DNA of 64,000 nucleotides from an uncultured Methylomonas sp. (GTDB taxonomy: Bacteria; Pseudomonadota; Gammaproteobacteria; Methylococcales; Methylomonadaceae): positions 11,154 to 75,153 of the forward strand of contig CAKZJE010000047.1 of NCBI GenBank assembly GCA_936941155.1, given 5' to 3'. Both the position numbers and the translations under genes were made by a program. The notes under the pieces were generated by a model. It worked only from the letters and a program-made list of their open reading frames with translations. It was not told the origin of the DNA and ran no database searches. This document shows positions 853 to 29,372 of this stretch, piece after piece. The number at the start of each line of letters is the position of its first letter. The stretch's first letter is position 1.

Positions 853-3800
853 CTATATAAAGTTCAACAGCTGTTCGGCTATAGTTACGGAAACCTCATC
901 TAAATTAGATTTGCCACCAAAAAACCAGTCAATTTTTGCTTTTCCTCGCCAACCTATTTCAGAATCTTCATTCCATTTATTAGCTAAAGAAAAAAGTTGT
1001 TCTGAAACCGCATCCACATCAAAAGCAGAAAATGTCTCAATATTATCGTGCGTCAACGATAAATCTTTATTGTCATAATTATTAGCCAATACTAAAACAC
1101 CTGCTTCAGCCATTTCCAAAGGAGGATAACTAGGATGCGGTGAAACCATTAAAGAAATAGCTAAAGCAGATTTTGATGCCAATTCAGCATATTCATCAAG
1201 AGTTAGTCTTCCTAAAATTTCAATTGATTTAGAAATTTTAATTTTTTCTGCATTAAAGTTTTCGCCAATTGCAATAAATCGCCAATCAGCCCAGAAATCT
1301 GGATTATTTTGAGCAGCTGAGCTTATGATAACATCTAAAAACGGCAAACAGTTTCTTTCTGCGTGAGATCTTGCATATAACAAAACAATCCGTTCTTTTT
1401 TTGTGTCTCGACAAATAGCTTCTTTATATTTTACATTAATACCCGGATACAAAGTAAAACCTTCCTGATAATAATTATGCGCTTTAAAAAAGTTAAATAG
1501 AATTTCGGTATTAAAAATCGGGATAGTTTTTTCAGGATGACGATAAGTTTGATCGGCTAACGCATATTTGGTCGACCACGCATAAAAACCGCATTCATAA
1601 TCTTGAATCAAATAAAGGAATGGATATTCTCTGCCCGCAAAAATTTGCTGTTGTTGCCGCATGATGTCCAAGGCATTTTGCGCAGTCCACCAAGCAGTTG
1701 CCATAAAAATATCATTTTCTCGCACAAAAAAAGGATAACGGTAACGCTGCGCTCCGTCAATAACTACATCTTCATCTGCAACATCGGCATCTAACGGAGC
1801 AATAAATTGATAATTTGAAGGAGGCGCGTATTGATTCGATGGCGTTGCATCGGTGCTAATTAAGCGTGCATCAAATGCTTCACCCAATTGTTCTCTGATC
1901 GCAAAAAACATATCTAAAGCCGTAGCAACGCCCGCATAGCCTTGTGAAGTTTCAACCGTTGGGATAAGTAAATTAATGCGCGGCTTAGTTTTAAAACTAG
2001 GGCGAACAAAAAATTTACTACATTCTGGATAATAATGTCGCAGTGTACCTAGCTCATGGCTTGCCGGTAGATAACGATTACCCTGTGCCAACAGATTATT
2101 TAACAATTCTTGGTTTTCTATCGACTCTACTTTTTTATTCGTAGCAGGCAATCCAACCAACCATTCATAACCTGCCATTTCCACAAAATACAGAAAACTA
2201 CGTTCAATCGCATGGGCAAGTGTGCCGTCTATTTGTCCTGCCTCAGGATTAAAATGGTAATAACGTAAGTTTGTTTTTAACAATACCTGCAATGCCGATG
2301 CTTTAAACCAGAACATTGAACCCGATGGAAAATCAAGCACACTTTCTTTAAACACTTTTTGATTATGTAAGCCCAATAAGCCTGAAACCATACCAAAATT
2401 TCCACCCCACTGAATTAATTTTTTAATAGCTCCAAAATGTTCTGGGATGTAAGCACCTATTTTCTCGTTTTCTAGCAAAGACAGAATATTACTGACTAAT
2501 TCCGGTGTGCCTAAATTAGCCTCAAAAAGATAAGTGCGCCAGTCATTAAATTCTTTTGCATAATGCTTAGATTTTTTTGAATGAATATGTATGCCAAAAT
2601 CCACTTCTTTTAATCTATCGCGAAAACCCACAATCATGGGGGCAATATCACGTCCGCGATTTGGAGTGACACGAATTTCAAAAGGATGGATTGAGTGTTC
2701 TTCACAAATCGCTTTAATTTCTTTTGCTTTCAGTGAAGTATCAGTAGAAATATAAATACAGCAAGGTGATGGAATATTTTTTGTTTTTTCCAACATTTCT
2801 TGCGCTAAATCAGGATAAAAAATATGCGCAAAAACACCTACTTTTCCATGCTGGCTGGCATCTGGATTTATTTTAAGATGTGTAGGTAAAGTAATTGTTT
2901 TTCGGCTACTAGGAAAAGGCTTAAGGTTTTGATCTGGAGCTTCATTATTTCGGCAAGCAGAACCTTTGTGATAACCAATAGTGAGATAATGCGCTAAAGG
3001 ATTTGTGGTTTGAAGATTGAGTTGGTGTTCTGCAACATAAAAATTATGATCAAACAGAGGATGAACAGCACGGTTTTCTGAATAGCCAGACTGAGCATAA
3101 TGCAGCAACGCTTCCATTTCGGATAATGCCACATCCGCTGCATAAGTGTAGTAATGTGCTTTTGAGAAAAACGGGTGCGGATCAGTTTTAGCGTCCCATG
3201 CTTGCGCAAGATAATCGACAAGTGCCGGAACATCTAATGTGCGTGGAGCTATTTGCTCAAGATAAAACTCTGCATCAAATAATGGATGTGGACTAACCAT
3301 CTCTTTATTTTCAAAGAAATGTTGTAATGGTGATAGTTTTAATGAAGTTAATTCTAAGCCTTCATTTGCTAAATAATATTTGGTATTAAACAAAGGATGC
3401 GGACTAATTCCTTTTGCCCAGCCTACATAGCAATAATGTGACAAAGGATCAGGGCCTATAACTTCATTTTTGTGTTGTTGCTGATAAAACTTAACATCAA
3501 ATAAGGGATTAGGATTAAAACCATTACGCCATCCCCATACAATAAAGTGATAAAAAGGATCAATAGGTTCTGCAAGATCTTTCAGATAAGTTTTGGTATA
3601 CCAATCAGACCAAAACAGAGGATGTGGTTTAGCGTTTTGTTTCCAACCTTCGGTAGTGTAATGAATCAAAGGCGGGGTATTGATTTTATTTTCAGATAAA
3701 TAAGTCTCTTGATACCATTTTGCATTGAATAAAGGGTGAGGATTATGAAGTTTCTCAATACCTTTTTCAATAAAATAGCTTAAAGGATCAACAGTAGTGC

Positions 3801-15255: not shown

Positions 15256-15309
15256 GATAATTTTTAAGATTACAGAGAGTTAATAAAATGTTGTGTTAGA
15301 TTTCTAGCA

Positions 15310-15341
15310 AACCTTTCAGGTCTTAAAGACCTGAAAGGTTT
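15310..15341. repeat. Palindromic element acctttcaggtcttaaagacctgaaaggtt (family R2) at the dapC 3' end
   Basis: This is a perfect 13-bp stem. A near-identical copy lies at 28487-28518. Confidence 0.6.
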
Positions 15342-16576
15342 AAACCAGCAATAAAGTTTTTGATTCGCAAAGCCGCTTCCGTGCATTCTGCCACCGGAGC
15401 AACTAAAGCAATTCTGACATGATTTTCACCCGGATTAACGCCATCAGCTTCGCGTGATAAATAACTGCCCGGCAACACAGTGACGTTTTGCTGGGCAAAA
15501 AGTTGTTGCGCAAAATCCGTATCTGACATCCCCCTCATTCCCCCTTTGTTAAAGGGGGACGCTGAAAGCTGGGGGATTTTCAACCAAATATAAAAACTGG
15601 CAGGCGGTTTTTTCACTTCACAAACATCAGACAAAACATTGATAAATGCGGCAAATTTTTCCCGATACAGTTTTCTGTTTTCCACCACATGCGCTTCATC
15701 TTGCCATGCCGCAATACTGGCATATTGCGTTGGCAGTGGCATTGGGCAGCCGTGATAAGTGCGATATTGAAAATAACTTGCCAAAATATCAGCATCACCC
15801 GCGACAAAACCGGAACGCAAGCCCGGCGCGTTAGAGCGTTTTGATAAACTTTGAAACATCACACAGCGTTTAAAAGCCGTGTTGCCGAGTTGATACGCCG
15901 ATTGCAATAAACCTTGCGGTGGATTTTGTTCATCATCATAAAGTTCGGTGTAGCATTCATCCGATGCGATGACAAAATCAAACTTTTTAGCTAACGCTAA
16001 GATTTTCTGATGTTGTTCTTTGCTCAATAAAGTTCCGGTCGGATTGCCTGGCGAACAAATAAACAGCAATGCGCAGCGTTGCCAAACTTCATCGGGTACG
16101 CTGTCAAAATCAGGCAAATAGTCATTTTCCTCCGGCGTATTCAAATAATAAGGTGTTGCGCCCGCTAACAGAGCCGCGCCTTCATAAATTTGATAAAACG
16201 GATTTGGCATTACCACCAGAGGTTTTTCGTTTGGATTAACCACCGCTTGCACAAACGAAAACAGAGCCTCGCGCGTACCGCTGACGGGTAGCACTTGTGT
16301 TTCTGGATTTACACTATTTTCAGAAAATCCGAACCGCTTTTCGATCCATTGACTAATCGTGCCGCGTAACTGCGGCAAACCTTTCGTGGTTGGATAATTG
16401 CCTAATCCTGACAAGTTATTTATCAACGCTTGTTGAATAAATGCCGGCGTGGGATGTTTTGGCTCGCCAATGGATAAAGCAATATGCGCTTTTTCCGCTG
16501 GCGGCGTAATCCCCTGTTTTAAAGAACTCAGTTTTTCAAACGGATAAGGGTGACATTGAGTTAAATACGGGTTCAT
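15323..16576 (-). CDS. dapC: Class I aminotransferase, probable N-succinyl-LL-diaminopimelate aminotransferase
   Basis: It has the aminotransferase I/II fold with a PLP lysine region (SLSKRSNAPGLRSGF), and the dapC-dapD arrangement is known from betaproteobacterial loci. It also contains an unusual GC-rich in-frame insertion (see findings). Confidence 0.65.
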   Translation of the reverse strand: MNPYLTQCHPYPFEKLSSLKQGITPPAEKAHIALSIGEPKHPTPAFIQQALINNLSGLGNYPTTKGLPQLRGTISQWIEKRFGFSENSVNPETQVLPVSGTREALFSFVQAVVNPNEKPLVVMPNPFYQIYEGAALLAGATPYYLNTPEENDYLPDFDSVPDEVWQRCALLFICSPGNPTGTLLSKEQHQKILALAKKFDFVIASDECYTELYDDEQNPPQGLLQSAYQLGNTAFKRCVMFQSLSKRSNAPGLRSGFVAGDADILASYFQYRTYHGCPMPLPTQYASIAAWQDEAHVVENRKLYREKFAAFINVLSDVCEVKKPPASFYIWLKIPQLSASPFNKGGMRGMSDTDFAQQLFAQQNVTVLPGSYLSREADGVNPGENHVRIALVAPVAECTEAALRIKNFIAGLNLSGL

Positions 16577-18334: not shown

Positions 18335-18442
18335 TACAAATCAACTTAGGCAAGTTTCCTCTTAAAATCGCTGAGGTTACGACTGGCAGTCCTTTAAGGA
18401 CTGCCAGTCGTAAAGTTGCCGCGTTTATTTCATGCGCATTTT
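18332..18442. repeat. ~110-bp repeat family R4, copy 1 (contains the 12-bp-stem hairpin gactggcagtcc-tttaa-ggactgccagtc)
   Basis: It is about 90% identical to 29262-29372, and both copies are intergenic. Confidence 0.6.
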
Positions 18443-28448: not shown

Positions 28449-28486
28449 AAACCCAAGTTGTTGTATAACAAAAACATTATCACCCA

Positions 28487-28518
28487 AACCTTTCAGGTCT
28501 TTAAGACCTGAAAGGTTT
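28487..28518. repeat. Palindromic element family R2 (aaacctttcaggtctttaagacctgaaaggtttt), likely terminator
   Basis: It is a second copy of the hairpin at 15310-15341. Confidence 0.6.
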
Positions 28519-29261: not shown

Positions 29262-29372
29262 TAGGAACGAGTACAAATCAACTTAGGCAAGTTTGTTTTT
29301 AAAATCGCTGAGGTCAGGACTGGCAGTCCTTTAAGGACTGCCAGTCCTAAAGTTGCCGAGTTTATTTTGTGC
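29262..29372. repeat. ~110-bp repeat family R4, copy 2
   Basis: It is about 90% identical to 18332-18442 and is preceded by a separate hairpin at 29200-29240. Confidence 0.6.

Follow-up and report, generated by a model that had tools for sequence, protein, structure and literature searches.

Selfish DNA that has come to lie in frame within proteins is best known from Rickettsia, whose Rickettsia palindromic elements (RPEs) are about 100–150 bp long and restricted to that genus (Ogata et al. 2000, 2002, as summarised in PMC10969869). As this summary presents them, RPEs are dispersed palindromic repeats that occur in frame in unrelated housekeeping genes, where they add a fold-compatible peptide, and also between genes. 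Here we describe a block that shows the same behaviour in free-living methanotrophs. It lies inside dapC, the gene for succinyldiaminopimelate transaminase, on a 64,000-nucleotide stretch of contig CAKZJE010000047.1 from an uncultured Methylomonas sp. (hereafter the window; positions without a locus label count from its first letter). [quoted passage not shown] An earlier reading made from the letters alone (the sequence-only reading) had proposed the in-frame insertion of a small, tolerated palindromic element, and this proposal is supported by allele polymorphism at the site, by the existence of a dispersed family and by in-frame copies in other genes.

The likeness to RPEs that the sequence-only reading had drawn holds for behaviour, but sequence, size and host differ. 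In-frame palindromic repeats of this family were found in genes for DapC, AccD, a multihaem cytochrome and a TIR-AAA protein. In contrast to RPEs, in the outline given by PMC10969869, the unit of the dapC family measures 34 nt (42 nt as a net insert, 42–57 nt for the element) and is carried by many phyla and by phage contigs, while the dapC site holds both orientations as well as presence and absence among near-identical alleles. The dapC element is not in the described RPE families, from which its size and host range, as described, set it apart.

REPs, considered together with their hairpin-forming doublets (REPINs) and the REP-associated tyrosine transposases (RAYTs), are characterised in the relevant parts of PMC3116915 and PMC3733652 as short imperfect palindromes of 20–40 nt, mostly extragenic and in high copy number, whose inverted doublets form longer hairpins. 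Inverted doublets are found in the present family at six loci, and a double form occurs in the dapC gene of locus L004 (L and P numbers are our labels for loci and proteins); neither the GTAG nor the CGTC tag, a REP feature in the section of PMC3733652 concerned, stands at the foot of the hairpin in the 105-unit consensus. Unlike REP families, which are normally species- or genus-specific, the dapC unit is near-identical across phyla, copies of the dapC type occur inside coding sequence, and no RAYT/IS200-like gene was seen near copies in what was a weak test. Bacterial MITEs, some of which resemble terminators (Correia, QMITE1/2 of Coxiella, Chunjie and SPRITE), as far as PMC10969869 and PMC5896051 deal with them, are likewise non-autonomous, have terminal inverted arms (here AAATCCCCC / GGGGGATTT), occasionally fuse in frame with host open reading frames (ORFs) and may be positioned just after stop codons. 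The dapC element, in contrast, is smaller than a typical MITE and lacks a target-site duplication at dapC, and no parent insertion sequence (IS) with matching ends was recognised at loci with two copies.

Two further systems invite comparison. The small dispersed repeats (SDR) of heterocystous cyanobacteria, which Elhai et al. 2008 (cited in PMC4390886) reportedly described in Nostocales only, are said to be tens of nucleotides long, hairpin-forming, precisely inserted in conserved sequence and frequently nested one inside another, as are copies of the dapC family, and for neither group is mobilising machinery known; the likeness is one of description. Related copies of the dapC unit lie on cyanobacterial plasmids, and the two sets may overlap. 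Intragenic invertons are invertible segments inside coding genes; like the dapC element they have an interior flanked by inverted repeats within a coding sequence and a frame open in both orientations, whereas the dapC segment is only 34 bp and its orientations were seen between related genomes only.

The dapC block and its repeat family

The block inside dapC is real: the 48-mer quoted by the sequence-only reading occurs once in the window, at 15529-15576, with 0 matches in 100 shuffles, and the ORF around it is DapC_gpp above the TIGR03538 cutoff. Its coding strand reads AAA ATC CCC CAG CTT TCA GCG TCC CCC TTT AAC AAA GGG GGA ATG AGG GGG ATG TCA, giving the peptide K-I-P-QLSASPFNKGGMRG-M-S, and contains three nested palindromes, namely a 7-bp outer stem ATCCCCC/GGGGGAT, a 3-bp mini-hairpin and an inner hairpin (Table 1). 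The inner hairpin is perfect, as had been claimed, but its stem has 9 rather than 8 bp, closed by a 3-nt loop; the arms (15539-15547 and 15551-15559) are 100% complementary and read TCCCCCTTT-AAC-AAAGGGGGA on the coding strand. Of the two outer arms, the one at lower positions is the family's AGGGGGAT(TT) arm when read on the coding strand, and the other contributes the Ile-Pro codons that stand in place of Thr-Pro in empty alleles. Methylobacter copies carry the mini-hairpin as GCC-TTC-GGC, changed on both sides with the pairing kept, in a small sample. The folding energy of the block is -29.4 kcal/mol as RNA (z -3.6) and -17.0 kcal/mol as DNA (z -4.2), and no shuffle was as stable.

The composition of the block had been put at about 60% GC; it measures 57%, in a window of 39.5% and a dapC gene of 44.6%. 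Since 3.1% of 49-nt segments of the window are equally or more GC-rich, GC content alone is not extreme. The true anomaly is the clustering of C5/G5 runs, 4 of the window's 17 falling within these 49 nt, together with the nested palindromes. The codons within the element are atypical or rare for dapC, which outside it uses CCC for 3 of 33 Pro, GGG for 1 of 23 Gly and AGG for 0 of 13 Arg. The same 14 residues in unrelated taxa, or the lack of another copy in the genome together with normal codon usage, had been named beforehand as signs against an insertion; codon usage across the segment is abnormal, and its carriers are related Methylococcales only.

By its hairpin TCCCCCTTT-N3-AAAGGGGGA and a third arm AGGGGGAT(TT) 3 nt away, the block belongs to a dispersed C5/G5 repeat, and window positions 15526-15559 equal the 34-nt unit of this family with 1 mismatch. 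A pattern scan with the hairpin alone (TCCCCCTTTNNNAAAGGGGGA), run on one genome per species in 185,579 species, found at least 132 sites in at least 120 genome stretches from many phyla, against a chance expectation of about 9 (our own estimate, assuming uniform base composition). Among the matches listed, dapC was present in 0 of 120 stretches, and an arm that had not been part of the pattern (N1-6, G4-7, AT) flanked the hairpin on one side at 108 of 132 sites (82%), with the consensus TTgAGGGGGATTT, which appears as its reverse complement, AAATCCCCCTNAA, where the arm is on the opposite side. This makes the unit a module of 34 nt with three copies of the heptamer TCCCCCT/AGGGGGA; in the consensus built from 105 oriented units, the 9-bp-stem hairpin is followed 3 nt later by the third heptamer copy AGGGGGATTT. 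By record titles, the hosts include Desulfobacterota, Chloroflexota, Nitrospirota, Omnitrophota, Parcubacteria, Ignavibacteria/Kapaibacteria and beta- and gammaproteobacteria, with Geomesophilobacter, Iodobacter and Pseudoxanthomonas among the cultured isolates. Copies identical over 34 nt to the Methylobacter dapC insert occur in Iodobacter arcticus (L023), in a Xanthomonadaceae metagenome-assembled genome (MAG; L028) and at L045, L105, L115, L123 and L125.

Viral contigs contribute 67 stretches with the full 28-base unit, one contig of 23.6 kb having at least 7 exact copies, and the unit is also present on cyanobacterial and Acinetobacter plasmids. On the Acinetobacter plasmid NZ_CP090068.1 (L281 2501-2590) a gene for 3-oxoacid CoA-transferase subunit B is followed, 10 nt past its stop codon, by the start of a tail-to-tail doublet that the record leaves unannotated. 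Inverted doublets, head-to-head or tail-to-tail, which make longer palindromes, are common (L012, L014, L047, L079, L088, L281), and tandem arrays occur too, often with a central GC-rich mini-hairpin; the dapC copy is laid out as two inverted arms (AAAATCCCCC ... GGGGGAT(T/G)T), the mini-hairpin and a single core hairpin.

In Methylobacter and other Methylococcaceae contigs, copies outside dapC were found at L011, L027, L031, L063, L079, L098, L102, L124 and L210, mostly between genes in the Methylococcales as a whole. L210 has its extra copy at position 3509, 7.5 kb from dapC, and L011 has extra copies at 336 and 2109. Several copies lie in frame in other proteins. The C-terminal tail of AccD in a Methylobacter MAG (L011 2039-3010, minus strand) contains one of the same sub-type as dapC, with the GCCTTCGGC mini-hairpin and the peptide IPLNPPLTKGEAEGAGG; a doublet lies between the haem-binding domains of a multihaem cytochrome-TPR protein (L076, about 6958), and an NTPase (L036, about 4664) has another copy between its SEFIR/TIR and AAA domains, the latter two with real domains on both sides.

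A number of observations concern what such copies might do. Copy-rich phage-like contigs include L228 and L274 (IMGVR_UViG_3300035670_001258) and L213, L227 and L252 (IMGVR_UViG_3300049722_000032), where short intergenic gaps often contain tandem arm-hairpin units, then the GC mini-hairpin and then an inverted unit. In viral contigs, 43 of 90 units have a same-strand ORF start downstream of the AGGGGGAT arm at a distance of up to 45 nt, compared with 24 of 90 in the control, a bias that hints at a terminator-like or ribosome-binding-site-like role in phage contigs. A general role as ribosome-binding site or start codon was rejected, bacterial stretches giving 22 of 118 and their control 19 of 118, and so was a terminator role for the window copy, which lacks a T-tail and received no terminator flag. 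Window positions 15300-15800, scanned against Rfam by E-value, returned chance matches only; a scan of 15 repeat-bearing loci at the Rfam gathering threshold returned only signal recognition particle (SRP) RNA and tRNA, with no family for the repeat. Full-text literature searches with the motif as DNA words and with the encoded peptides gave nothing relevant, and no name for the repeat in searchable texts.

Empty, filled and flipped alleles at the dapC site

The roughly 14 extra residues of the sequence-only reading correspond to 14 codons that are absent from the closest homologues, from a 94.8%-identical allele and from the nearest solved structure, 3jtx. The closest DapC homologues (82-87% identity, 398-403 aa) read WLKTP-ISDT with nothing between, 3jtx shows a 13-residue gap at the insert, between a strand and the following helix, and metagenomic DapC relatives outside Methylococcales (parseable gamma-/betaproteobacteria) have 0-3 extra residues at the site; the metagenome scan for dapC relatives returns mostly distant, empty alleles. 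The homologue alignment that had been suggested as a check reveals presence and absence exactly at the site, even inside the 90%-identity cluster of the window protein itself. There P0124 (403 aa; gene L278, 94.8% DNA-identical to the window gene) is empty, and P0121 is filled, with an insert that is 2 nt different. Two such clusters mix filled and empty members, and in the P0019 cluster alleles of 412 and 398 aa stand side by side. In a tree of 120 homologues, for which the columns of the insert had been masked, the window protein falls inside a clade whose other members are all empty, and empty alleles are nested inside a largely filled Methylobacter clade. Doubled forms with two hairpins (L004; P0028, P0063) and decayed copies (P0014/L006, P0034, P0040, P0041, P0046, P0053) complete the range of states.

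The filled state exists in two orientations. In the tree, two equal-length peptide types (...IPLPSASPFEKGGLRGI... and ...IPLNPPLSKGEAEGRGI...) alternate between sister sequences, and comparison at DNA level reveals in L208 and L210, between identical arms, an interior that is reverse-complementary to that of L007. The same element sits at the same dapC site both ways round, stop-free and in frame in either case, and its orientation switches several times across the 120 homologues. The two peptides differ (PSASPFEKGGLRG vs NPPLSKGEAEGRG).

Conservation of the segment follows the DNA. The window gene and Methylobacter dapC genes are about 69-70% identical, and codons for identical residues match at the third position in 47-50% of cases, whereas in the stem codons all third positions (10 of 10) are identical, against an expected 0.47-0.50 (P about 5e-4 to 9e-4). 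The element differs from that of L280 at 5 of 57 positions, all five outside the stems. The loop codon is variable (N, E, D, S, F, K), which together with the different peptides of the two orientations makes selection on the segment at the protein level unlikely. The constraint is on DNA, not on the peptide. Separately, we note that the stems are 100% conserved, synonymous positions included, in the window, L279, L280, L128, L005 and L007, with spacer and loop diverging at about the gene-wide rate.

Filled and empty alleles differ in the target as well. The empty allele reads TTG AAA ACA CCG CTT GCT GAC and the filled one TTG AAA ATC CCC [42 nt] ATG TCA GAT, so that about 10-13 nt of target are replaced by the element arms, with no direct repeat. 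Throughout the 120 homologues, element carriers have K-I-P...G-(I/M)-S-D at this point, and empty alleles have K-T-(P/S/A), after which (L/I/V)-A-D comes in the nearest empty relatives; exceptions to the split are decayed copies (e.g. P0014) and alleles with an unrelated third insert. Judged by its sequence, the empty Methylobacter allele (ACG CCG ATT GCC) looks ancestral rather than like an excision scar. When the window is compared with L278 and L279, it sides with the empty lineage along most of dapC (102 against 18 informative sites in the first 900 nt) and switches to the filled lineage at eight consecutive informative sites flanking the insert. As seven of these eight lie within the rewritten arms, transfer of a patch and flanks borne by the element are not separable, and the flanks of distant filled alleles are too conserved to inform on recombination. 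The dapC target AAAAC(G/A)CC(C/G)(A/C)TT resembles the two arms joined, which fits microhomology-guided copying or short-patch recombination between alleles.

The DapC turn is a hot spot for tolerated insertions. Unrelated inserts of the form DDLQG...LPGAT occupy the same turn in P0049, P0099, P0118 and L138. In L138 (1931-2080), this third kind of insert consists of a 42-nt unit (peptide DDLQGRSECSELPGA) twice in tandem, each copy bounded by the 9-nt direct repeat ACTGCTGAC; P0049, P0099 and P0118 have related peptides, and P0091 combines that insert with the C5/G5 element. A second unrelated repeat, the 48-nt GCCGCGCCCGTTCCCGACAGGCTTGCGGCATACACGCCATCCCTGGCG with the peptide AAPVPDRLAAYTPSLA, lies in frame at another Methylobacter dapC site (L007 10352-10399). 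Copies related to it were seen at about 1250 in L138, a locus retrieved as a dapC relative, and at about 13774 in L209 (minus strand), in the C-terminal tail of an FMN-reductase/ArsC fusion gene.

A proposed passenger repeat and alternative explanations

On the preferred reading, the element would be a passenger without a role in the enzyme. It may have persisted in dapC because it adds exactly 42 nt, brings no stop codon into frame in either orientation and sits in a permissive turn of the C-terminal domain, which would lie between a beta-strand (FYIWLK) and the helix after it (SDTDFAQQLF) and could accommodate extra residues. The arms would overwrite some 10-13 nt of target sequence without duplicating it, turning T into I on one side and A into S on the other. 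The filled state may then move between lineages by short-patch recombination, by microhomology-guided copying from another copy or by both, and the orientation may flip through recombination or template switching between the inverted arms.

Several observations weigh against this reading. The search for further copies that had been called for did find the repeat dispersed in other genes and intergenic regions, Methylococcales included, but in the 64-kb window not even a degenerate copy was found besides that in dapC. Comparison of the filled allele with the empty one at 94.8% identity reveals no target-site duplication at dapC, and loci with two copies show no IS-like arrangement or pair of ends. 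A search for an IS200/TnpA-like ORF gave 0 matches at E up to 10 in 4,269 open frames of 120 8-kb stretches, a weak test with a single distant query. Near-identity over 34 nt across phyla is unusual for REP/MITE families. The surface-loop location, which was to be checked on a structural model, is suggested by the sequence alignment with 3jtx, which puts the site between a beta-strand and the next helix; an AlphaFold2 model from a 35-sequence alignment, with a mean predicted local distance difference test score (pLDDT) of 52.5, is too poor to be used for placing the loop. Finally, invariant stems in genes that share only about 69% identity exceed the conservation to be expected of a decaying passenger.

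Integrity of the stems could come from selection on structure, from conversion by other copies or from re-introduction. A first alternative is that the hairpin is a functional nucleic-acid structure in dapC, either an mRNA element (for pausing, stability or processing in an M48-dapC-dapD operon) or a protein-binding DNA site. Invariance of stem bases at synonymous sites, divergence of the other positions at about the gene-wide rate and the strong fold all speak for such a structure, and intergenic family copies closely follow stop codons and, in phage contigs, lie a short way upstream of starts, a placement that suggests terminator-like or ribosome-binding-site-like activity elsewhere. We nevertheless consider a function in dapC unlikely: close relatives do well without the element, both orientations occur, and the window copy, with neither T-tail nor terminator flag, is placed some 200 nt before the stop codon of dapC, away from gene boundaries. 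Several lineages carry decayed copies, which argues against an obligatory function. An ordinary lineage-specific extension of the DapC loop, arisen by local duplication under protein-level selection and with no dispersed DNA involved, is barely plausible. The turn is variable and accepts other, unrelated inserts, and the window lacks another copy, as such an extension would have it, but many genomes carry the same 34-57 nt of DNA within unrelated genes and between genes, the segment's codon usage is alien to dapC, and what is conserved between the two orientations is the DNA, not the peptide.

The two orientations themselves might point to a programmed inverton, in which a recombinase flips the 34-bp interior between the inverted arms and each population holds two isoforms of the DapC loop. 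Methylobacter genes that share about 90% identity (L007 vs L208) do have both orientations at one and the same site, with identical arms, several switches are spread over the tree, and either orientation is stop-free and in frame. Still, we find this very unlikely, given that mixed orientations within one population were not observed in assemblies (the sole data type), that an interior of 34 bp between arms of 8-10 bp is very small by the standard of known recombinase systems, that no recombinase gene adjoins dapC in any locus examined and that the two peptides have no evident functional difference; quasi-palindrome template switching or re-insertion explains the flips equally well.

A wider proposal, which we put forward tentatively and hold to be doubtful, goes beyond the passenger reading. 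The 34-nt C5/G5 triple-heptamer module might be an undescribed cross-phylum, phage-borne mobile palindrome without an element-specific transposase, spreading by microhomology-guided copying or gene conversion into arm-like sites and flipping in place by template switching, and would thereby yield recurrent, reversible in-frame loop polymorphism in housekeeping enzymes. The likeness of the dapC target to the arms fits spread into arm-like sites. Were it true, transposase-free spread of this kind would be a general bacterial counterpart of the RPE phenomenon in Rickettsia.

The present case links the insert with a tiny repeat family found near-identical across many phyla and in phage contigs. 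With empty, filled, flipped, doubled and decayed alleles, the dapC site is a natural experiment, and the allele series, given data at the level of reads, could show how mini-palindromes move, invert and get purged, and how much loop variation the aminotransferase fold tolerates. In practical terms, such repeats leave protein databases with spurious length variants and with odd peptides of low complexity (SPFxKGG, NPPLxKGE).

Host gene, feature coordinates and other palindromes

Profile TIGR03538 (DapC_gpp) matches the window ORF over its full length with 637.4 bits, against an NCBIfam curated cutoff of 474.6, and aligns protein residues 1-409 with profile positions 1-395. The best protein matches are from Methylococcales (Methylobacter, Methylomonas and relatives), and the gene stands in the row M48-peptidase / dapC / dapD. 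All residues that are invariant in 35 aligned DapC homologues are intact in the window protein, including K246 in the stretch SLSKRSN, which we take to be the conserved pyridoxal phosphate (PLP)-lysine motif of this fold. Table 1 lists the features of the locus; for the net insertion, the C/G runs make the precise position of the gap within them arbitrary.

Table 1. Positions in the window of the host gene, the net insertion and the palindromic parts of the element
Feature	Position	Strand	Pairing or coding	Evidence
dapC, succinyldiaminopimelate transaminase, 417 aa	15323..16576	minus		TIGR03538 profile and intact invariant residues
Net insertion, 42 nt / 14 codons	15530..15571	minus	Q336-G349	codon alignments vs empty alleles L003 and L278, protein alignments
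Outer arm ATCCCCC (+ strand)	15528..15534		pairs with 15571-15577	RNA and DNA folds, family consensus
Inner hairpin TCCCCCTTT-GTT-AAAGGGGGA, 9-bp stem, 3-nt loop	15539..15559		encodes S-P-F-N-K-G-G	core of dispersed repeat unit
Mini-hairpin GCTGAAAGC (coding strand GCT-TTC-AGC)	15561..15569			DNA minimum-energy fold and sequence comparison
Outer arm GGGGGAT (+ strand; ATCCCCC on coding strand)	15571..15577			RNA and DNA folds, allele comparison

Other palindromes are present in the window. A 33-bp perfect palindrome, AAACCTTTCAGGTCTT-A-AAGACCTGAAAGGTTT, which is unlike the dapC insert, occurs in two copies, at 15309-15341 and, between genes, at 28486-28518. The first of these overlaps the 3' end of dapC, coding for the last residues ...LNLSGL with the stop codon in the palindrome centre, and it matches the 5-residue C-terminal extension by which DapC homologues of 403 aa differ from those of 398 aa. 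A further palindromic family, with the shared core GACTGGCAGTCCTT/AAGGACTGCCAGTC, is represented at 18377-18413 by an 18-bp perfect inverted repeat and at 29300-29364 by a 32-nt one that is 78% complementary.

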